Shown here: positions 2,397-37,534 of the stretch, in pieces
How positions within the stretch are numbered: the stretch's first letter is position 1
Layout: the number at the start of each line of letters is the position of its first letter
The notes under the pieces: model-generated
The model's database searches: none
What the model was told of the DNA's origin: nothing
What the model saw: the letters and a program-made list of their open reading frames with translations, nothing else
IMG/VR virus record: IMGVR_UViG_3300031867_000233
DNA: 37,534 bases
Reading direction: 5' to 3' (one strand)
Origin: a virus
Program-made: the position numbers and the translations under genes

Positions 2397-2783
2397 ATGG
2401 CACAAGGCTATTATTCTTGTAGCAGATGCGGGAAGATACATCCGAAAGGCTATGTGTGTAAGGTAGGTGCAAGGAAGAAGCACTACAAGTACAGCTACAA
2501 AGAGTCAAGGTTGAGAAGCAAAGGCATATGGACAGAGAAGAGCAAGCAGATAAGAGAGGATGCAAACTATCTATGTGAAGTGTGCAAGGACAAAGGGATA
2601 TACAATTATCGTGACGTATCAGTACACCACATAGAGAAGCTACGAGACAGACCTGACTTACTTATTGAAGATACAAATTTAATTTGCTTATGCAAGGACT
2701 GTCACAGGATGGCAGATGTAGGAATGATTGACAAAGAATATTTAAAGAAGCTAGCAAGGAAGAGAATAGACAAGCTGAAATAA
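2397..2783 (+). CDS. HNH endonuclease (packaging-associated type)
   Basis: CSRCG...CEVC...VHHIEKL...NLICLCKDCH is an HNH/zinc-finger signature. It lies upstream of the terminase genes, as in HNH/cos phages. Confidence 0.85.
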   Translation: MAQGYYSCSRCGKIHPKGYVCKVGARKKHYKYSYKESRLRSKGIWTEKSKQIREDANYLCEVCKDKGIYNYRDVSVHHIEKLRDRPDLLIEDTNLICLCKDCHRMADVGMIDKEYLKKLARKRIDKLK

Positions 2784-2810: not shown

Positions 2811-2874
2811 GGTGCTCTGTCAAGATGAAACGCCCCCATAGAGAGACACAAAAATAATAAAATCTTACGGTTTT

Positions 2875-2985: not shown

Positions 2986-3831
2986 ATGAGAAAAGACTTT
3001 GCGTGTATCGTAATATCACATGGCAGACCTGAGTGCAGTACGGTAAAGGTGCTTCGTGATTGTGGTTATACAGGGAAAATCTATATCGTTGTTGACGATG
3101 AGGACAAAACGCTACCAGATTATGTCGAACGGTACGGGGCTGATGTTCATGTATTCCACAAAGAAGAAAACTTCGATACTGGAGACTTGGGTGGCAGTAA
3201 GGCATGTGGAGTGTTTGCACGCAACCAATGTTTGAAGGTTGCAGAGAAAAACATGCTGACTTACTACCTAGAACTTGACGATGATCTCGAAAATCTTTCG
3301 TACAGATATAACGATAACGGGCATTTAAGAGGAATCAAGGCTAGAGAGCTTGACAGGTTGTTGGATGGAATTTGTACTTATTTTGATGAAGCTCCTGTGC
3401 AGTGTTTAGGTTTCGGAAATGCCGTTGACTATATTGGTGGTGTTCCAACGTTTGAAAGTGGAAAAGCAAACAGGGCTGTCATGAATAGCTTTTTTCTAAG
3501 AACATCAAACAAGATTCAATGGCGAAGCAGATTTTCAGACGACATAATTACGGTTGTCGATGAAGCACAAAAAGGTCATGCAGGATTCAGATTCATTCCT
3601 GTTATGAGCACATACGATGTATGGATTCCAAAGCGAAAATCAAAAAGCAGTGGCGGTAGTATTGAGGACTATAACAAGATAGGTTCGTATAAGTTGAGAT
3701 ATTATGCTGTTATGTTTCATCCTGATTGCATAAAGATAAAAGAATCAGGAGATGGGTATGACTGGACTGTAGTATCTGAGAATGCATATCCTAAAATATT
3801 AAGCGGGCGATATAAGAAAGGCAGGGCGTAA
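2986..3831 (+). CDS. GT-A fold glycosyltransferase, paralog 1 (281 aa)
   Basis: GVFARNQCLKVAEKNMLTYYLELDDD matches the GT2/GT-A 'ArN..A....lDDD' nucleotide-sugar/DxD signature. It is clearly paralogous to 4603..5463, sharing SHGR, GVFARN, L.LDDD, DYIGGV and SFFL motifs. The RBS is aaaggtggtg. Confidence 0.7.
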   Translation: MRKDFACIVISHGRPECSTVKVLRDCGYTGKIYIVVDDEDKTLPDYVERYGADVHVFHKEENFDTGDLGGSKACGVFARNQCLKVAEKNMLTYYLELDDDLENLSYRYNDNGHLRGIKARELDRLLDGICTYFDEAPVQCLGFGNAVDYIGGVPTFESGKANRAVMNSFFLRTSNKIQWRSRFSDDIITVVDEAQKGHAGFRFIPVMSTYDVWIPKRKSKSSGGSIEDYNKIGSYKLRYYAVMFHPDCIKIKESGDGYDWTVVSENAYPKILSGRYKKGRA

Positions 3832-3833
3832 AA

Positions 3834-4613
3834 ATGGAAAGCAAAAAAATGAATATCGTTTACAAGAAGGTAAAGGACTTGATCCCGTATGAGAACAATC
3901 CAAGAAACAATGACGAAGCTGTTGACTATGTAGCAAACAGCATTAAAGAGTTCGGTTTTAAGGTTCCGTGTGTTGTGAGCGGTGACGGTGTATTGATCAC
4001 AGGTCATACAAGACTTAAAGCATGTAAGAAGCTAGGCATTGATGAAGTTCCGTGCATTGTTGCTGATGATCTTACAGAAGACCAGATCAAGGCGTTCAGA
4101 ATTGCTGATAACAAGGTATCCGAATACAGCACATGGGACAATGAAAAACTTGCTGAAGAACTGAGCGAAATCATGATTGATATGGGACAGTTCGGAGATG
4201 ATCTCTTCAAAGATGATGATACGATGGACGTTGAGCTTCCTGAAGAAGAAAATCCTTACAGCCAGAAAAAGCACATTCCACAGTATGAACCGACAGGCGA
4301 TTTTGTCGATATTATGGACTTGATTGATGATGAAAAGACGAACGAGTTAATTAAGGAAATCAAAGAATCTAATGTTTCTGAAGACCAGAAGAACTTCCTT
4401 ATCAAGTCGGCTTACAGGCATTTGAAGTTCAACTATTCAAAGATAGCTGACTATTATTCCAATGCTTCTGAAGAAATGCAGATTCTTATGGAGAAGTCAG
4501 CACTTGTCATTATTGACATTGATGATGCAATTGCAAACGGATATGTGAAGCTGACAAAGGTGGTACAGGACTTAATTGCTAAAGGTGGAGGTGGTGAAGA
4601 CGATGCGGAATAA
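3834..4613 (+). CDS. ParB/Srx N-terminal-domain protein with an uncharacterised C-terminal domain (259 aa)
   Basis: IPYENNPRNND...SIKEFGFKVPCVVSGDGVLITGHTRLKACKKLGIDEVPCIV is a ParB-like nuclease/CTPase-fold N-domain. I recognised no ParA, no methyltransferase motifs and no DPPY motif. Confidence 0.75.
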   Translation: MESKKMNIVYKKVKDLIPYENNPRNNDEAVDYVANSIKEFGFKVPCVVSGDGVLITGHTRLKACKKLGIDEVPCIVADDLTEDQIKAFRIADNKVSEYSTWDNEKLAEELSEIMIDMGQFGDDLFKDDDTMDVELPEEENPYSQKKHIPQYEPTGDFVDIMDLIDDEKTNELIKEIKESNVSEDQKNFLIKSAYRHLKFNYSKIADYYSNASEEMQILMEKSALVIIDIDDAIANGYVKLTKVVQDLIAKGGGGEDDAE

Positions 4614-5463
4614 AAGCTTTGCTGTATTTATTCTTTCGCATGGCAGAGCGAACAATATCAAGACAGTTAATATGTTAAAACGTTTTCGTTATACAGGCGA
4701 TTGGTACGTTGTCATAGACAATGAGGATGATCAAGAAGAACTGTACAGAAATGAGTTTGGCGACCATATCATTCAATTTGACAAGCGAGATTATGTAAGC
4801 AGAATCGACCTTGGCGATATGGACACAGACAGAAGGGTTGGCGTGTTTGCGAGAAACTTTATTCAAGATGAAGCAGAACGTCTTGGCTACGAATGCCACC
4901 TACAGCTTGATGATGATTTTTCTGAAATCTCAATCAGATATGCAGAGAACGATAAGCTACAAAGCATGATGGTCACTGACCTTGATACTGTATTTGATGC
5001 GTGCCTTGATTTATTTTTATCAACTCCGTTGACTGCTTTATCATTTGCATTAGCAAGTGACTACATTGGCGGTGTTGCAAATGACAGGTTTCAATCAGGA
5101 ATGTTCAGAAAAACAATGGGATCGTTTTTCTTAAAAGCAAAAGACAAAGTGAAATTTGTCATGCGCATGAATGATGATATAACATCATGTGTTTTGTATG
5201 GATCACGAGGGAAGCTGTTCTATAGCATGTCGAGCTTGCAGGTGATCACTCCTGCAACTCAGCATGATGCCGGCGGAATGACTGATATCTATAAAAAGAA
5301 TGGTACATATCGAAAATCGTTCTACAGTGTCATGTGCTGTCCTTCATTCGTAAAGGTTTCAGCCATGGGAATTACGGACTTCAGGATTCATCACGAAATC
5401 AGTTGGAATAATGCCGTGCCAAAGCTTCTGTCTGAAAGGTGGTGCAAGCATGAAAGATATTGA
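4603..5463 (+). CDS. GT-A fold glycosyltransferase, paralog 2 (286 aa)
   Basis: MRNKSFAVFILSHGR...GVFARNFIQDEAERLGYECHLQLDDD...DYIGGV...GSFFL is homologous to 2986..3831. The start is set at ATG 4603, after the RBS aaaggtggaggtggtg. It overlaps the ParB-like stop codon. Confidence 0.7.
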   Translation: MRNKSFAVFILSHGRANNIKTVNMLKRFRYTGDWYVVIDNEDDQEELYRNEFGDHIIQFDKRDYVSRIDLGDMDTDRRVGVFARNFIQDEAERLGYECHLQLDDDFSEISIRYAENDKLQSMMVTDLDTVFDACLDLFLSTPLTALSFALASDYIGGVANDRFQSGMFRKTMGSFFLKAKDKVKFVMRMNDDITSCVLYGSRGKLFYSMSSLQVITPATQHDAGGMTDIYKKNGTYRKSFYSVMCCPSFVKVSAMGITDFRIHHEISWNNAVPKLLSERWCKHERY

Positions 5464-6550
5464 TTATCTGATTATCGGTGCAGGGCTGAGCGGTTCAGTA
5501 ATTGCAAGTGAAATGACGTACAAGGGCTATAAATGCGTTGTTCTTGAAAAACGTGATGCTGTAGGAGGAAATATCAGAGATAAAGAAATCAGCGGAATAA
5601 ATGTCCATCTATACGGCCCTCATATATTTAGAACTAATGACATTGAAATATGGTCTTATTTAAACCTTTTCACTAGCTTTAACAGGTTCATCAATGAACC
5701 TATTGCAAATTACAAAGGCGAAATATATAACCTGCCGTTCAACATGAACACATTCTCTAAACTGTGGGGAGTTACAACACCTGAAGAAGCAAAACGAAAG
5801 ATTGAGGAACAGAGAGTACCGTGCGAAAATCCGAGGAACCTTGAAGAATATGTTCTGAATCTTGTAGGCACTGACATTTATGAGAAGCTTATAAAAGGAT
5901 ACACAGAAAAGCAGTGGGGCAAGACATGCAAGGAACTTGACAAAAGCATTATCAGGCGTATTCCGTTACGGTTCACGTACAACAATAATTATTTCAACGC
6001 AAAGTACCAAGGCATTCCCATTGATGGTTATTCTAAGACTGTAGAAAGGCTACTAGAAGGCGCTGAAGTGGTGACAGGGTATAAATGTTCATGCTCAAGC
6101 AAAGAGTGGCTAGAAAGAGCTAAAAACGTGGTTCTGACAGGTGCCATTGACGAGTGGTACGGCTATTGTTTCGGAACGCTGGAATATCGTAGCCTGAAAT
6201 TTGAAACTGAAGAATTGCAGGAAGAAAATCACCAAGGAAATGCGGTCGTAAATTACACCGATGCTAGAGTGCCATGGACTAGGATTATTGAGCATAAGCA
6301 TTTCACAGGAGTGCAGACACCGACAACAATTATCACGAAGGAATATCCGCAGAAATGGGAGCTTGGAAAAGAGCGGTACTATCCGATTGAGGATGAAAAG
6401 AACAAAGCACTGTATCAGAAGTACAAAGAGCTTGCAGACCGTGATGGATTGATCACAGTCGGAAGGCTTGCGGAGTATAAGTATTACGATATGGAAGATA
6501 CAATCAAAAGTGCATTAAAGGTGGCGAGAGAATTATGCGAAAAACAGTAA
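5450..6550 (+). CDS. glf: UDP-galactopyranose mutase (366 aa)
   Basis: MKDIDYLIIGAGLSGSV (FAD Rossmann GxGxxG), VLEKRDAVGGN, LYGPHIFRTN, NLPFNMNTF, and the C-terminal GRLAEYKYYDMEDTI. These are hallmarks of bacterial Glf as I remember them. The start is set at ATG 5450, after the RBS gaaaggtggtg. Confidence 0.85.
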   Translation: MKDIDYLIIGAGLSGSVIASEMTYKGYKCVVLEKRDAVGGNIRDKEISGINVHLYGPHIFRTNDIEIWSYLNLFTSFNRFINEPIANYKGEIYNLPFNMNTFSKLWGVTTPEEAKRKIEEQRVPCENPRNLEEYVLNLVGTDIYEKLIKGYTEKQWGKTCKELDKSIIRRIPLRFTYNNNYFNAKYQGIPIDGYSKTVERLLEGAEVVTGYKCSCSSKEWLERAKNVVLTGAIDEWYGYCFGTLEYRSLKFETEELQEENHQGNAVVNYTDARVPWTRIIEHKHFTGVQTPTTIITKEYPQKWELGKERYYPIEDEKNKALYQKYKELADRDGLITVGRLAEYKYYDMEDTIKSALKVARELCEKQ

Positions 6551-6909
6551 ACGAACAGGCAGAAGAAATATTACAGAAAGCAGAAGCATTCGGAGTTGAT
6601 AAAAACTTCTTCTTCATTACGACGTTCAGGCGATACATGGTGCAGTTGAAAATATTAAACGAGCTTGAATCGTCTATTAAAAATGACGGCGTACTGGTAA
6701 CGAAAGAGTATGTGAAGGGCAGAAAGAACGTATATTCTCATCCTGCCATTCAGGATTATAACAGAACAACTGACAGTGCAAACAAGACAGTAAGCACGCT
6801 GATGAAGATCATTTCGAGATTTTCCAGTGATGATAATTCTGATAGTGAAACTGACCCGTTGCTTCAGCTGATAAATGGCGGTGACGATGATGGCAGTTAC
6901 GAGCAGTAA
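6535..6909 (+). CDS. terS: Terminase small subunit (P27-like)
   Basis: 124 aa, immediately upstream of and overlapping terL. The helical N-terminus and acidic C-terminus are typical of P27-family small terminases. Confidence 0.6.
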   Translation: MRKTVNEQAEEILQKAEAFGVDKNFFFITTFRRYMVQLKILNELESSIKNDGVLVTKEYVKGRKNVYSHPAIQDYNRTTDSANKTVSTLMKIISRFSSDDNSDSETDPLLQLINGGDDDGSYEQ

Positions 6910-14442: not shown

Positions 14443-17276
14443 ATGGCATTAGGTGGAACGATTAAAATCAAGGGCGAAAGTGAGTACAGGCGAGCACTGT
14501 CACAGATCAAACAGAACTTGAGGGAAGTATCTTCCGAAATGAAGATCGTCACGAGCACATATGACAAGAATGACACAAGCACTGGAGCACTGGCGGCTAA
14601 GAGTGATGTTCTGACCAAGCGACTTGAACAGCAGAAAGCGAAACTCAACCTTGTTGCAGAGCAGTACAAGAAGTATGAGGAAGCTGTCAAGAAATCAGCC
14701 GATGAGCATGAACAGCTTGGCACGAAACTGGAAAGCGCAAAGGCAGAGCTTGAGCGCATTGGAAAGACAACCGGAGAAACAAGTGCTGAGTACGAGAAAC
14801 AGAAGAAGGTTGTTGATCAGTTGCAGTCTGAGTATGATGACAGCACAAAGGCACAGGATGTCAATGCAAAGTCACTGTCCAACCTCAAGATTGAGCTAAA
14901 TGGAGCACAGGCTGATGTAAACAAGACATCTAGGGAACTTGACAACCTAGGAAAGTCACAGGAGAAGACAAACGAGGGATGGACTGTCATGAAACAGGTA
15001 CTTGCTGACCTTGCTCATGATGCAATTCAGTCTGCATTCAATGGCATTAAGCAGTTAGGAAGTGCAATCATTGATACAGGCAAGCAGTCACTTGAAGCAT
15101 ATTCAAATTATGAACAGCTTGTCGGTGGCGTTGAAACATTGTTCGGCGCAGGAGGAAAGAGCCTAGAAGAGTATGCTAAAAGCGTCGGCATGAGTGCTGA
15201 CAAAGCAAAAGGGCAGTATGAAAAGCTGATGGGCGCACAGTCAACCGTACTTAAAAATGCGAACAATGCCTACAAGACAGCAGGGCTTAGTGCGAATGAG
15301 TATATGGACACTGTAACAAGTTTCAGTGCATCCCTCATTCAGTCGCTTGGTGGAGATACGGCAAAAGCCGCCAAGTATGCCAATACAGCAATCACAGACA
15401 TGTCGGATAATGCCAACAAGATGGGTACTGATATGTCATCATTGCAGAACGCATACTCAGGATTTGCCAAAGGCAATTACACGATGTTAGACAATTTGAA
15501 ACTAGGTAAAACCCACTATTGCCTAGTATAAACCTCGCGAAAACGGTGAAACCCTTTGAAATAAGGCGATACCGTGCGAAGCCCCTTAAAGGGGAACGTG
15601 TAACGACTATCGAAAACACACAAATATGTGGAAGTGAGTAGAGTACACGCAAGTGCGTGGAAGTGCGAGGTAGCCCAAACGGGTGAAAGAGATAGTCTAA
15701 TCTCTATAGTGATATAGAGCAGTTCCTAAGAGAACGGCATGAGATTAACGACCTCATGTGAATATAAATGTATGGTGGTACAAAGGAAGAAATGCAGAGA
15801 CTTCTTAAGGATGCCGAGAAGCTACCAGGGGCCATGGGACGAAAGTTCAATCTTTCCAATTATGCCGATGTGGTCGAAGCTATCCATCTTGTGCAGGACC
15901 ATATGGGAATCACAGGAACAACGGCAAAAGAAGCAAGCACAACTATTGAAGGTTCTACAAATGCGATGAAATCGGCATGGCAGAATTTACTCACAGGCAT
16001 GGCTGACGATAACGCCAATTTCGGAGAATTGGTCGGAAATCTGGTTGACAGTGTTACAACATTCGGAAAGAATGTGATACCAAGAGTACAGCAGATCATC
16101 AAGGGAATGGCGCAGGTGGCAACACAGTTGCTACAGGAAGTGGTACCGCAGATTGTTAAAGAAATTCCTCCGCTTCTGTCAGAAACACTTCCGATGCTGA
16201 TTGATGCACTGACAGCAGTGGGACAGAGCGTTATTCAGGTATTGCCGACATTAATGCCGATTGTTTCGGATGGGATTATGCAGATCGTACAGGGAATCAT
16301 TACACTGTTGCCAGAGTTCCTTAATGCAGGATTGCAAATGCTAACATCCTTGATACAAGGCATTACGCAGGCATTGCCACAGCTAATAGACATGTTGCCA
16401 ACAATCGTACAGCAGACAGCAGATGTAATCATTCAGAATTTGCCAACAATCATACAGGCAGGCTTGCAGTTGCTTGTTGCACTGATTAACGGTATTGTGA
16501 AGGCGTTGCCACAATTAATAGCCATGCTACCAACGATCATAGGGACAATCGAAGGAATATTAATAGCTAACTTGCCACTTATCATCAAAACAGGTTTTCA
16601 GATTCTTGTAGCACTGATAAAAGGCTTGATTCAGTCACTGCCACAGCTCATTGCATGGACACCACGAGTAATCAGGGCAATCGTAAGTGTTCTGGTTCAA
16701 AACTTGCCAAAAATGCTATCTATGGGTGGACAGCTTTTAGGATCACTCATCAGTGGTATTGGTTCAAAGATTGGAAACTTGGGCAGTGCAATTGGAAATG
16801 TTGCAACTAAAATCATTGACGGCATAAAGCACATACCAGGAAAGATGATCAAATGGGGCAAAGACATGATCCAGGGCTTGATTGATGGTATCAAGGGCAT
16901 GATTGGCAAAGTCGGTGACGCAGTTGGTGGAGTAGCCAATAAAATCAAATCATTCCTTCATTTCTCAAGGCCGGACGAAGGGCCTTTGGCTGAGTATGAA
17001 AGCTGGATGCCTGACATGGTGGAAGGAATGAGCGATTCCTTAAGAAAGGCAAGTCCAGAGCTTATTGACCAGACTAAGGCACTGGCACAGGGAATGTCCG
17101 ATGCAATGACTGTGAATGGCACTATAACAGGCACTGGCGTAGGATATGGAGGTTCATCCTTCGATTCAATGGTGTCAGCATTCAAGGATGCACTATCACA
17201 GGTCAAGATCGAGATGGACGACGAAGAAATGGGCCATTTTGTTGACAAAACGGTGACGAAACTGATTTATTATTAA
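14443..17276 (+). CDS. Tape measure protein, two exons (14443..15507 + 15771..17276, 856 aa after splicing)
   Basis: Joining ...MLDNLKLG to YGGTKEEMQRLLKDAEKL restores the conserved TMP motif NLKLGYGGT. It has a coiled-coil N-terminus and hydrophobic repeats (LPQLI..LPTII). Confidence 0.85.
15508..15770 (+). ncRNA. ORF-less group I intron (IA2, T4 td-like), 263 nt
   Basis: Exon 1 ends in U and the intron ends in G. P1 pairs cuaggu (15502-07) with gccuag (15521-26), including a U-G at the splice site. P10 pairs ccacuau (15512-18) with auggugg (15772-78). P7 pairs gacuau (15605-10) with auaguc (15692-97). A P9 hairpin cucuauaGUGAuauagag is present, and the 3' hairpin caugagAUUAACGACcucaug has the same loop I recall in the T4 td intron. 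Confidence 0.88.
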
Positions 17277-25335: not shown

Positions 25336-26670
25336 TTACTTGAAGAAAACTTCTATTCCATCAGGTGAAACATGGACAGAATCAATGATATTTCGCCACA
25401 GCGTGCGCTTGTTTTCACGTGTGAGGTTCTCATATATTGATTGCCAGCCGGTATTTAGAAATTGTTGCAGATGGTCTGTATTTTTTGGCTTGATGGATTC
25501 AAGCCTTTTTATTTTGTTTTCCGTTTCGGCGTACAGACGTTCATAGGTACTTACAGGCATACGCTTCTTGATGAAGATATAATTCAGATTGTCAAGCTCT
25601 TTTCTTAGTTCTTTCAATTCCTTTTCGGTTGTGTTCTTTGTTTCAGATGTGATGCTTGATATTGTGGCTATATGGTCCTTAAGCAGGGTATCAAGGTTAG
25701 ACAGCAGATATTTTTCCGTTGACAGTTCCGCATAGTGCTTTTTGTGGTTGCATGTATGCACCGAGTGGGCATTGTTGCATCTGTAATAATAGTATCGTTT
25801 ACCGCCTTTCGGATGGCTCACTCCGACCAGCTTAGAACGGCATTCTGGGCATCTTAACAGTCCAGTGAATAAATATGTATGGCGCTGTATTCCAGTGCGT
25901 ATATTAGCCTGTAATGCGGTCTGAACGGCATTGTATGTGTCTCGTGTGATGTAAGGTTCGGCGTAATTGGAGTTTCCACGGTATGATCCTGCATAAAATT
26001 CATTCTTTAATATGTGCATATATGACATATAAGGTCGAGACAGTCCGTATTTATTGTTTACGTATTCGACTGTATGATGGACTGACTGATGCAGGAGAAA
26101 TGACGAGAAGATGTCTTTCACTATTGGCGCTTTGGATTCATCAATCACAATGCGTTTATTACCGTTTTCCGTTGCAATCCTGTAACCAAAAGGGACATTG
26201 CCAGTTATAGGCTGACCTTGTGCGACTTTGTACTCAAACACAGCCTTGATGCGTTCAGAGCCTTTTTTCAGTTCGTGTTCCGCAAGGTTGACTTTAAGGT
26301 TGAACATAAACAATCCGTTCGCAGTGGACGTGTTTATATCGTCCTCACATATGGAAATCATGGCAACGTCATTCTGTTGAAGAAGTTCAAGCATCTTGTT
26401 AGCCTCAAGGACGTTACGTGACAGGCGGTCAAGTCGTGTGAAAGCTATGGCATCAAGATCACGAAGATTTGACAGCATGAGTTGCAGTTGAGGGCGTTTC
26501 ATTGTGCTTGCTGAATAGCCTTCGTCTACATAAATGTGTTGCAGGTCATGATCGTTATCGTTGCACCATTGCGTTATTTCTTCAGTCTGGGCTTGTATTG
26601 AGTATCCATATTTCTTTTGCTCGTCAGTGGAAACACGGGCATATCCTGCCACTCGCAGTTTTTTTCTCAT
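25336..26670 (-). CDS. Large serine recombinase (integrase)
   Basis: MRKKLRVAGYARVSTDEQ... is a resolvase catalytic domain. The length is 444 aa, and a Cys-rich zinc-ribbon region (LLRCPECRSKL...YYYRCNN) is present. Confidence 0.9.
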   Translation of the reverse strand: MRKKLRVAGYARVSTDEQKKYGYSIQAQTEEITQWCNDNDHDLQHIYVDEGYSASTMKRPQLQLMLSNLRDLDAIAFTRLDRLSRNVLEANKMLELLQQNDVAMISICEDDINTSTANGLFMFNLKVNLAEHELKKGSERIKAVFEYKVAQGQPITGNVPFGYRIATENGNKRIVIDESKAPIVKDIFSSFLLHQSVHHTVEYVNNKYGLSRPYMSYMHILKNEFYAGSYRGNSNYAEPYITRDTYNAVQTALQANIRTGIQRHTYLFTGLLRCPECRSKLVGVSHPKGGKRYYYYRCNNAHSVHTCNHKKHYAELSTEKYLLSNLDTLLKDHIATISSITSETKNTTEKELKELRKELDNLNYIFIKKRMPVSTYERLYAETENKIKRLESIKPKNTDHLQQFLNTGWQSIYENLTRENKRTLWRNIIDSVHVSPDGIEVFFK

Positions 26671-35905: not shown

Positions 35906-36301
35906 ATGTTAGATGAAGAAACATACAAAAAAGAATTAGTCAGAATGTGGGACAGTATCAGAGATGATAAATACAAAGGCATTGATTCATGCGCAGGTGT
36001 AATTTATTGTGAGGTATGTCCACTTTATAAAATTGGATGTGGGTCGTTTAACGCCTTTGAAACGATTAAGGCAATTGAAAAATGGAGCAAAGAAAACCAA
36101 CCAAAAAAGTACAAAGTTTCTAGAATGGAATATGATATGCTTCAAATTTATGCAATTAATCATATTTCAAATAATGACACATTTAATGATTTTTGCACGT
36201 TGAGAGGGCTTCTTGATAAAGGATATTTTGAGGGAGCAACTGGAAGTATGCATATAGGCGAATATTACATAAATTGCGAGGTTGTAGACAATGATGACTA
36301 A
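35906..36301 (+). CDS. Hypothetical Cys-motif protein, tandem paralog A (131 aa)
   Basis: YKKELVRMWDSIRDD...CAGVIYCEVCPLY...WSKENQPKKYKVSRMEYDML...LLDKGYFEGATGSMHIGEYYINCEV. Confidence 0.6.
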   Translation: MLDEETYKKELVRMWDSIRDDKYKGIDSCAGVIYCEVCPLYKIGCGSFNAFETIKAIEKWSKENQPKKYKVSRMEYDMLQIYAINHISNNDTFNDFCTLRGLLDKGYFEGATGSMHIGEYYINCEVVDNDD

Positions 36302-36698
36302 AGAAGAATACAATCGCGAGACAGTTCGCATGTGGGATAGCGTGCGAACAAACAGTAAAGGCGAACATACCTGTTCAGGCGTACAGTGTGAAGATTGCCC
36401 ACTTTATTATGTGAGTTTGTGCCACTCATATGGTTCTATTAATGCTTATGACGTATATGAGAAAGCTATTAAATGCATTGATTATGTTGAGAGGTGGAGC
36501 AAGGAACACCCACCCAAAAAGCACAAAGTCTCACAGTTGGAGTATAACATTCTTCTTACGGCAATTGATTTTAGTGCAGAGGAGGAAACATTCAATGACA
36601 TTGACATTCTATATGGATTACTAAAAAAAGGATATTTCAATGGATCAACTCCAAGTATGCGTATAAGAGAATATTTAAAAAATTGTGAGGTTGCATAA
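36291..36698 (+). CDS. Hypothetical Cys-motif protein, tandem paralog B (135 aa)
   Basis: YNRETVRMWDSVRTN...CSGVQCEDCPLY...WSKEHPPKKHKVSQLEYNIL...LLKKGYFNGSTPSMRIREYLKNCEV is collinear with paralog A. Confidence 0.6.
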   Translation: MMTKEEYNRETVRMWDSVRTNSKGEHTCSGVQCEDCPLYYVSLCHSYGSINAYDVYEKAIKCIDYVERWSKEHPPKKHKVSQLEYNILLTAIDFSAEEETFNDIDILYGLLKKGYFNGSTPSMRIREYLKNCEVA

Positions 36699-37407: not shown

Positions 37408-37534
37408 CAAAAGTAGCGTTGTGGATGTCAGCATCCTATACGGTAGAGGCGAAGTGGACACGCCTGTAAGAATAAGGATTGCCTGACTTGTCAGGTGGAA
37501 ACTTAAATATCAAACTTCTTAAATAGAACCGTCA
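37408..37534. repeat. Terminal direct repeat, copy 2
   Basis: Exact copy of bases 1-127. Confidence 0.95.

Follow-up and report, generated by a model that had tools for sequence, protein, structure and literature searches.

The window analysed here, one strand of 37,534 nt (IMGVR_UViG_3300031867_000233), holds the genome of a temperate gut siphophage and carries, at 2986-6550, a module of four coupled genes for two glycosyltransferases (GT1 and GT2), a ParB-like protein and the UDP-galactopyranose mutase Glf. This module is built on a two-gene core, consisting of the ParB-like helper and GT2, a glycosyltransferase (GT) of the TAGT family, to which two accessory genes have been added. We propose that it serves to glycosylate phage DNA after replication, with help from ParB and with a glycan that contains galactofuranose, a reading in which DNA as the acceptor is inferred and whose chances we consider about even. 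Compared loci and contigs are given below as "L" numbers, compared proteins as "P" numbers; the module genes are:

2986-3831, plus strand: GT1, TAGT-family GT-A glycosyltransferase, 281 aa
3834-4613, plus strand: ParB/Srx-type (ParB-like) protein, 259 aa
4603-5463, plus strand: GT2, core TAGT-family GT-A glycosyltransferase, 286 aa
5450-6550, plus strand: Glf, UDP-galactopyranose mutase, 366 aa

The coordinates of the open reading frames (ORFs) confirm the four coupled genes that an earlier reading of the DNA letters (hereafter the sequence-only reading) had seen, with overlaps at 4603/4613, 5450/5463 and, into the terminase gene terS, 6535/6550; the overlap between the GT2 start and the ParB stop amounts to 11 nt. 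The ribosome-binding site type that it took to be common to these genes, AAAGGTGG, does lie 7-16 nt 5' of the GT1, GT2, Glf and terS starts, but the ParB gene has AAAGGCAGG in its place. In public contigs with an identical GT2, the called lengths of GT1, ParB and GT2 match those in the window, while Glf runs off the contig end. The module does not differ from the remaining genome in base composition, and none of its four proteins has a membrane segment (maximum 19-residue hydropathy at most 1.6).

The ParB-TAGT core and its accessory genes

Both glycosyltransferases exceed the gathering cut-off of the Pfam family TAGT, for TET-associated glycosyltransferase (PF20691, 27.5 bits), GT1 with 76.9 bits (E 2.7e-21) and GT2 with 124.9 bits (E 5.5e-36); they match phrog_842 (E 3e-35 and E 3e-61, respectively) and are 35% identical to each other over their full length (E 1e-46). 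Structure modelling of the glycosyltransferases covered GT2, whose AlphaFold2 model (pLDDT 90) has a GT-A fold. In a Foldseek search of the PDB, its best matches were all GT-A enzymes, albeit distant ones (TM about 0.45), and the nearest solved folds include the protein and peptide glycosyltransferases ColGalT1, SunS and GalNAc-T2; a PDB sequence search found no solved TAGT structure. In BFVD, the model matched TAGT proteins with TM values of up to 0.88, and the matches include a T4-like beta-glucosyl-HMC-alpha-glucosyltransferase (TM 0.65, E 5.5e-10). The sequence-only reading had recognised two diverged GT-A paralogs and hinged on their being glycosyltransferases; both indeed belong to TAGT, and the GT-A fold is borne out by the GT2 model.

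Across 54 GT1- and GT2-type sequences, H13-G14-R15, D39, D42, A83, R84, D104 and D192 are invariant, and N85, D103 and D105 are at least 90% conserved; A83/R84, N85 and D103-D105 are the positions of the 'GVFARN...LDDD' signature. The R...DDD...acidic pattern of these sequences resembles the R...DDD...EDY/F signature of experimentally active phage DNA GT-A enzymes and of trypanosome JGT. The TAGT family was defined in Iyer et al. 2013, as cited by Burke 2021 (PMC8256090). Several of its members are natural fusions (P0385, P0394, P0415, P0358, P0366, P0400) with a C-terminal Sulfotransfer_2 domain, a C-terminal class I methyltransferase or an N-terminal extension of about 180 aa, which in P0358 contains a P-loop (GASCAGKS). 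Four putative ParB-TAGT fusions (P0122, P0144, P0180, P0234) have truncated domains and look like frameshift or deletion products, and were left unused as Rosetta-stone evidence.

GT1 is an accessory paralog, being absent from sister phages that retain ParB-GT2-Glf. GT2, on the other hand, is translationally coupled to ParB, and Glf is always placed after a GT2-type gene, which makes GT2 the candidate galactofuranosyltransferase. Glf itself scores 375 bits with the NCBIfam equivalog TIGR00031 (cut-off 303.75), matches Pfam GLF (E 1.4e-74) and NAD_binding_8 (E 2.7e-15), and has the N-terminal FAD-binding GxGxxG motif as IIGAGLSG at residues 8-15. These matches uphold its earlier identification as a UDP-galactopyranose mutase, the predicted supplier of UDP-galactofuranose.

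The ParB-like protein matches Pfam ParB_N (E 2e-6) and phrog_620 (E 1e-67). It is also matched by two DNA methyltransferase profiles, the PADLOC 'Type II methyltransferase' model (MTase_II, E 1e-29), whose N-terminus aligns with residues 6-114, and phrog_498 (E 3e-42), which aligns with residues 2-138; judged by these profiles, its nucleotide-binding domain is of the subtype found N-terminally in DNA methyltransferases. PADLOC yielded no further defence match, and a reading of the module as a defence system was therefore rejected. In the AlphaFold2 model of the protein, which is of moderate confidence (pLDDT 69), only the nucleotide-binding domain (residues 8-92) was aligned by Foldseek, with an rmsd of about 2 A to ParB, Noc and KorB in their CTP-bound form. 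The motifs NPR, GHTR and DNK of this domain are invariant, the linker (residues 115-143) is acidic and disordered with an invariant PQYEPTG motif, and the C-terminal domain (160-225) is helical, strongly conserved and without a PDB match. As there is no helix-turn-helix (HTH) in the model or the profile matches, and no ParA-like gene among the annotated ORFs of the window, we discarded the possibility of a chromosome or plasmid partition ParB. As modelled, the combination of nucleotide-binding and C-terminal domains without an HTH corresponds to that of DNA-modification-associated ParB (O'Toole 2026). A ParB of this kind, lacking a DNA-binding domain, serves as the activator of a phage thymine dioxygenase subclass, and does so specifically on double-stranded DNA (O'Toole 2026, PMC13229309); in the window, the gene beside ParB codes for a TAGT instead of a dioxygenase.

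The nucleotide-binding domain further shows weak structural and sequence similarity to sulfiredoxin and to the serine kinase SerK. Together with its invariant NPR, GHTR and DNK motifs, the P-loop domain at the N-terminus of some TAGTs and the lack of a nameable polymer acceptor, this likeness would fit a scheme in which the pair targets a nucleotide or small molecule (a nucleotide signal or the nucleotide-sugar pool, in counter-defence), with the ParB domain acting as a nucleoside triphosphate-binding or phosphotransfer enzyme, as in sulfiredoxin or SerK. We hold this to be highly unlikely: no precedent for it is known among TAGT proteins, genes for anti-defence tend to be early ones, unlike this block at the head of the packaging operon, and a ParB subtype tied to DNA methyltransferases points to DNA, the acceptor that we propose.

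How regularly the two core genes occur together became apparent from a census of 80 IMG/VR loci with TAGT relatives (39-95% identity); the TAGT family as a whole comprises about 1,800 clusters at 50% identity. ParB adjoins the TAGT gene in 74 of the 80 loci and lies at most three genes away in 77, the remaining three having their TAGT at a contig edge, and the ParB stop and the TAGT start overlap in 45 of 53 evaluable junctions. Far from being the orphan that it had been called, ParB is thus a near-obligate, translationally coupled partner of this TAGT clade. The slot beside the pair is variable, being filled by Glf in 13 loci, a radical SAM protein in 13, an SDR epimerase or dehydratase in 9 and a second TAGT in 16. 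When 102 representatives of neighbouring genes were compared with Pfam, terminases were the commonest families. TAGT neighbours are terminase genes or replication genes.

Duplicated pairs occur as well: L071 and L072 have two ParB-TAGT pairs each, and L101 (9223-15701) has three ParB paralogs, each before a different enzyme (a TAGT, a 432-aa radical SAM protein and a C5 DNA methyltransferase), with TerL directly after. The radical SAM neighbours could provide an oxygen-independent means of functionalising base or sugar. The gene order of the window, TAGT-ParB-TAGT-Glf, is repeated in L098, a distant lineage (41% identity), with a sulfotransferase-like ORF alongside. In the 36.6- and 55.4-kb phage contigs L021 (7001-8703) and L022 (5044-6746), a tandem TAGT pair lies within the replication module (PolA, DnaB, primase, dUTPase, RecA); these contigs have no ParB and no annotated hydroxylase, and several unannotated ORFs of 147-374 aa are located just upstream of the TAGTs. 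The phages and prophages with a ParB-TAGT pair have Lactobacillus, Nocardia, E. coli and Haloarcula as hosts, more loci are found in gut metagenomes, and one ParB homolog is present in a Lachnospiraceae metagenome-assembled genome.

Among deposited phages, the only close match at the DNA level spans 155 nt, to Lactobacillus phage Ld17, and relatives beyond it were traced by protein-level searches. The close relatives come from human-gut and other metagenomes. Gene orders were as follows, with each sub-combination of the module genes represented:

GT1-ParB-GT2-Glf: window, L009, L011, L012, L025
ParB-GT2-Glf: L010, L014-16, L026-36
Chimeric GT (GT1 N-terminus, GT2 C-terminus)-Glf, no ParB: L023, L024
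ParB-GT alone: c5, L. gasseri phi jlb1, Haloarcula virus HHTV-2, Nocardia phage NTR1, gut contigs, E. coli phages

The chimeric enzyme P0268 (L023 7001-7846, L024 1060-1905) is about 93-97% identical to GT1 over residues 1-90 and about 90-97% identical to GT2 over residues 221-270. It is intact, and the module around it reads HNH-GT-Glf-terS without ParB; apparently, the two GT paralogs have recombined and ParB has been deleted. Compared with Lactobacillus delbrueckii phage c5 (L002), terS of the window is 92%, ParB 82% and GT2 61% identical, and on these identities GT2 is the faster-evolving component of a c5-like packaging end. The high conservation of ParB was not taken as a special signal, since the entire packaging end is c5-like. 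This cos/packaging end is common to the window phage and the dairy phage c5, whereas their lysis genes and presumably their hosts differ.

In E. coli, Rac-like prophages carry ParB (ynaK) and a 310-aa 'hypothetical protein' TAGT between trkG and terS, in the order trkG-ynaK(ParB)-TAGT-terS (for example L106 19959-21675, E. coli NZ_CP033884.1, and L017 6247-7921), and the ynaK-TAGT pair was matched in 1567 of 5426 complete E. coli genomes. PGAP labels the GT of these prophages 'hypothetical protein' and ynaK often partial. One intact Rac-like prophage, read from intR to the tail-tip gene gpJ, contains no hydroxylase.

Position of the module at the genome end

Nucleotides 1-127 of the window are identical to 37408-37534, indicating a circularly closed assembly with an arbitrary start point and a true genome of 37,407 bp, in line with the complete 37.4-kb genome assumed by the sequence-only reading. 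Outside the four module genes, the following features were located:

2397-2783, plus strand: HNH endonuclease (Pfam HNH E 2e-5; phrog_144 E 5e-18)
2839-2850, no strand: approximate physical left end (cos) of the virion chromosome, from contig starts
2869-2904, plus strand: conserved GGTTTTTTGGAAAAA motif (2869-2883) overlapping a promoter-like TTGGAA-N18-TATAAT (2875-2904)
6535-6909, plus strand: terS, small terminase subunit (phrog_13845 E 5e-78; 92% identical to ORF4 of Lactobacillus phage c5)
6875-8578, plus strand: terL
25336-26670, minus strand: serine integrase

The module had been seen as an unusual wedge between HNH and terS. Contig L006 and the 39.7-kb contig L012, however, begin within about 5 nt of window positions 2839-2844. 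In a sister lineage, the independent contigs L013, L014 and L016 all begin at one identical base, and in L015 an Illumina adapter (CTACACGACGCTCTTCCGATCT, positions 1-22) is joined directly to this start base, which is immediate proof that the DNA molecule has a physical end there, about 125 nt 5' of ParB. The contig starts of the window lineage and the sister lineage agree within a few bases, about 125-145 nt 5' of the first module gene, and Lactobacillus phage c5 has its annotated cos 90 nt 5' of the ParB gene. Taken together, the coinciding contig starts and the c5 cos place the cohesive end between HNH and GT1, at about 2839-2845. HNH is accordingly the final gene before the genome end and lies outside the module as context. 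The virion chromosome opens with the module as its first block of genes, and the module does not split an HNH-terS unit; a ParB-TAGT pair just inside cos and upstream of terS is in fact common and widespread, the core preceding the terminase genes in Lactobacillus phage c5, in Haloarcula virus HHTV-2 and in the Rac-like prophages of E. coli.

The GGTTTTTTGGAAAAA motif is single-copy in the window and recurs at the equivalent position in c5, L009-L016, L023-L025 and L028, in three lineages some 30-45 nt inward of the left genome end (L002, which is c5, 42-56; L014, 31-45; L023, 6879-6893). It is probably a cos or promoter element. A ParB loading site was considered and rejected, as the motif is kept in ParB-less variants and overlaps the promoter-like -35 element, and as TerS, too, is 92% conserved with c5. 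We found no plus-strand terminator-like site between HNH and GT1. Given the promoter-like site upstream of GT1 and no terminator-like site, the timing of expression cannot be fixed from sequence, and the late expression that had been deduced from coupling into terS is not readable from this coupling alone.

This conserved, sigma-70-like promoter site could permit expression apart from the late operon, and galactofuranose is generally known as typical of Gram-positive wall polysaccharides. Both would suit a host envelope polymer as target, modified at a cytoplasmic step in the manner of TarP, with galactofuranose being placed on teichoic acid or wall polysaccharide precursors and changing receptor or serotype (lysogenic conversion or superinfection exclusion); TarP is also the top PDB match of other phage DNA-type GT-A enzymes. 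Among the top 50 PDB matches of GT2, however, TarP is absent. We regard an envelope target as very unlikely, since the module comes with no transmembrane segments, no flippase and no polyprenol-linked components, and heads the packaging operon, in contrast to lysogenic conversion of the Gtr or TarP type. Moreover, the core pair is kept in hosts with wholly different envelopes (E. coli, Haloarcula, Nocardia, Lactobacillus), its relatives are all on phage contigs and none in polysaccharide loci, and both the pairing with ParB and the terminase-proximal position would be left unexplained.

The remainder of the window codes for lysis functions (holin and GH25 lysin, 840-2395), for portal, protease, capsid and tail proteins, and for a replication and regulation set with repressor, Erf, exonuclease, SSB, NinB, RusA, DnaD- and DnaC-like loaders and a MazG-like protein. 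The tape-measure protein (TMP) is encoded in two ORFs, 14443-15531 (362 aa) and 15768-17276 (502 aa), which are separated by a 236-nt gap and match consecutive portions of the same TMP families; this could reflect an interruption, a frameshift or an assembly issue. At 35906-36301 and 36291-36698, two overlapping ORFs code for tandem Cys-rich paralogs (131 and 135 aa) with a common 'RMWDS.R...C.GV.C..CPLY' motif and no family match.

The acceptor of the glycosyltransferases

If the module glycosylates phage DNA, Glf would convert host UDP-galactopyranose to UDP-galactofuranose, and GT2, as the primary transferase in an inferred order of the two GTs, would put galactofuranose onto replicated phage DNA. 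GT1, the optional paralog, may then lengthen or diversify the glycan, akin to the TAGT of phage T6. ParB would hold or activate its cognate GT on duplex DNA before packaging, like the ParBs that activate phage thymine dioxygenases, and the likely benefit would be a progeny genome shielded from nuclease-based defences.

Of the three targets that the sequence-only reading had offered, DNA is the most supported, while envelope and protein are less favoured. It is suggested by the TAGT family membership of both GTs, by the DNA-methyltransferase-type ParB domain, by the near-obligate ParB-TAGT pairing, and by the ParB paralogs of L101, one of which has a genuine DNA methyltransferase as its partner within the array. 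The pair is furthermore kept across hosts with dissimilar envelopes and virions, and DNA is common to all of them. The variable slot (Glf, SDR epimerase, radical SAM) and the sulfotransferase and methyltransferase fusions constitute the diversity expected under an arms race.

Several observations weigh against DNA as the acceptor. To our knowledge, all characterised phage DNA GTs need a hydroxylated base or a sugar already present on such a base. In the complete genome, neither a TET/5mYOX nor a thymidylate-synthase-like hydroxylase was recognised with PHROGs and/or Pfam, nor was a DNA methyltransferase or membrane Gtr component, which confirms the absences reported by the sequence-only reading. 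The scan covered the four module genes, HNH, terS, terL, 23 early-region ORFs (64-444 aa) and ten structural-region ORFs. We rejected a hidden hydroxylase, as only replication and recombination, lysis, structural and small unknown proteins (at most 165 aa) came to light, a novel small enzyme still being possible. The association of the TAGT family with TET/JBP (5mYOX) or another source of hydroxylated pyrimidine is thus missing from the window; across the 80 loci, TET_JBP and Thymidylat_synt are likewise outside the Pfam families matched by at least two of the 102 neighbour representatives. The ParB-less HNH-GT-Glf-terS variants with their intact chimeric GT indicate that ParB is not absolutely required in those phages, and the methyltransferase and sulfotransferase fusions of TAGT would equally suit the tailoring of protein or polysaccharide glycans. 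The isoelectric points, very acidic for ParB (4.4) and near neutral for the GTs, count here only as indecisive, charge being uninformative as an indicator of DNA binding.

The composition of the DNA adds a further, weak point on this side. G/C-only restriction palindromes are strongly avoided in the window, with GGCC observed 15 times versus 57 expected (0.26x), CGCG 10 versus 33 (0.30x), GCNGC 6 versus 57 and CCNGG 15 versus 57, while A/T-containing 4-mer palindromes are mostly at about 0.8-1.1x of expectation, with GATC (0.75x) and CTAG (1.4x) as exceptions. This avoidance argues for DNA without blanket protection at C or G. The pattern could fit a modification directed at A or T, and equally the restriction repertoire of the host.

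One way around the missing hydroxylase would be a self-sufficient pair, in which ParB exposes a canonical base in duplex DNA and the GT attaches the sugar directly, with no prior hydroxylation; the attachment point could be an exocyclic amine or an acceptor new to DNA. We consider such direct glycosylation improbable.

The glycosyltransferases might instead decorate protein, either of the virion (capsid or tail, as in mycobacteriophage) or of the packaging machinery, with ParB providing a scaffold or the timing where packaging takes place. A genome that has no acceptor-making enzyme for DNA, a module co-transcribed with or adjoining head and packaging genes, solved folds such as ColGalT1, SunS and GalNAc-T2 among the nearest to GT2, and fusions suited to glycan tailoring on proteins are all compatible with this possibility, which we deem unlikely. 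TAGTs with an assigned function work on DNA, the same ParB subtype is fused to DNA methyltransferases, and the near-obligate pairing with ParB would be hard to account for. Some TAGT genes, moreover, reside in replication modules far from structural genes, and the pair is kept across phages of bacteria and archaea with unrelated virion proteins.

Known phage TAGT/GT-A enzymes glycosylate 5-hydroxymethylcytosine made by a C5 methyltransferase (C5-MT) and a TET-like 5mYOX (Burke 2021, PMC8256090; Pyle 2023, 10.1101/2023.12.21.572611), and the 'orphan' GT contigs without this first step, about 65% of phage GT contigs, were judged less likely to be DNA-directed by Pyle et al. (10.1101/2023.12.21.572611). 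It is this doubt, combined with the missing acceptor-making enzyme, that holds our assessment of the DNA reading at the even level stated at the outset.

Relation to known modification systems

Clusters of C5-MT/5mYOX and GT (PMC8256090; 10.1101/2023.12.21.572611) share with the module the GT family, the R...DDD signature and the post-replicative mode; in them, several GTs can build di- or trisaccharides, and ParB, terminase and sugar epimerases are often near. They differ in that the window genome and the neighbourhoods of most relatives are devoid of methyltransferase, 5mYOX and ThyS-type enzyme, in that the donor of the module would be galactofuranose, and in that its ParB gene directly precedes and overlaps that of its GT partner. 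The ParB-dependent thymine dioxygenases (PMC13229309) have in common with it the ParB domain plan, an adjoining DNA-modifying enzyme and an often nearby terminase. Their pairings are cognate-specific, which is paralleled here by the duplicated ParB-TAGT pairs and the three ParB-enzyme pairs in L101. The partner of the module's ParB is, however, a glycosyltransferase, whose activation is proposed by analogy, while the dioxygenase class is tied to thymidine hypermodification by kinases and amino-acid transferases, not to GTs.

The TAGT of phage T6 is credited with adding the second glucose, onto glucosyl-hydroxymethylcytosine (PMC13390438). This T2/T6 beta-glucosyl-HMC-alpha-glucosyltransferase shares Pfam family and PHROG with the module GTs, and with the T4-like fold match mentioned above (TM 0.65) it is a plausible model for GT1. 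T-even phages differ in making hydroxymethyl-dCTP before replication, in using a separate first GT and glucose, in having no ParB partner and in their large lytic genomes. For Rhizobium phage RL38JI (Pootjesviridae), a Glf encoded by the phage is the proposed source of the galactose on 5-hydroxycytosine (PMC13326640), so that a Glf acting in the glycosylation of phage DNA, a target that the sequence-only reading had called unusual for galactofuranose, now has a published precedent, albeit one that is itself a proposal. As proposed for the window, Glf is part of a DNA glycosylation gene set there and galactose part of the glycan. Unlike the module, RL38JI relies on a pre-replicative, thymidylate-synthase-like 5-hydroxy-dCMP synthase, and its GTs were annotated from matches to other glycosyltransferases; the paper (PMC13326640) mentions neither TAGT nor ParB.

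The ParB(YnaK)-TAGT pairs of the Lactobacillus delbrueckii phages c5, phiLdb, LL-Ku and Ld17 and of the E. coli Rac-like prophages are the same core at a matching site, either just inside cos or upstream of terS, yet they have no Glf and no second GT. Their annotations do not go beyond 'ParB nuclease', 'hypothetical protein' or 'beta-glucosyl-HMC-alpha-glucosyltransferase', and in the literature we found no paper characterising ynaK or a hydroxylase-free ParB-TAGT pair. Every component family is already known, as are neighbourhoods of ParB, GT and terminase. What we did not find described is the TAGT clade together with ParB as a translationally coupled, hydroxylase-free two-gene core, its swappable slot for donor tailoring, filled by Glf in the window, and its presence in complete small temperate genomes, among them Lactobacillus phages that can be cultured and prophages common in E. 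coli.

In the current view, phages glycosylate their DNA in two steps, in which a hydroxylated pyrimidine is made and a sugar is then added. Here, a large TAGT clade almost invariably comes with a ParB of the DNA-modification type, next to packaging genes and in complete small genomes that are free of hydroxylases. Either phages glycosylate their DNA by a new route, or a supposedly DNA-specific family has some other conserved target that requires ParB, and either outcome alters the annotation of thousands of phage genomes. Since culturable carriers exist, namely the L. delbrueckii phages c5, LL-Ku and Ld17 and inducible Rac-like prophages of E. coli, the question is directly testable. The answer bears on the evasion of restriction and CRISPR by gut phages, and on enzymes as tools to label DNA with galactofuranose or other unusual sugars. 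If direct glycosylation were true, DNA modification would gain a new class of chemistry, one found in thousands of phages, the Rac-like prophages of about 29% of complete E. coli genomes among them.

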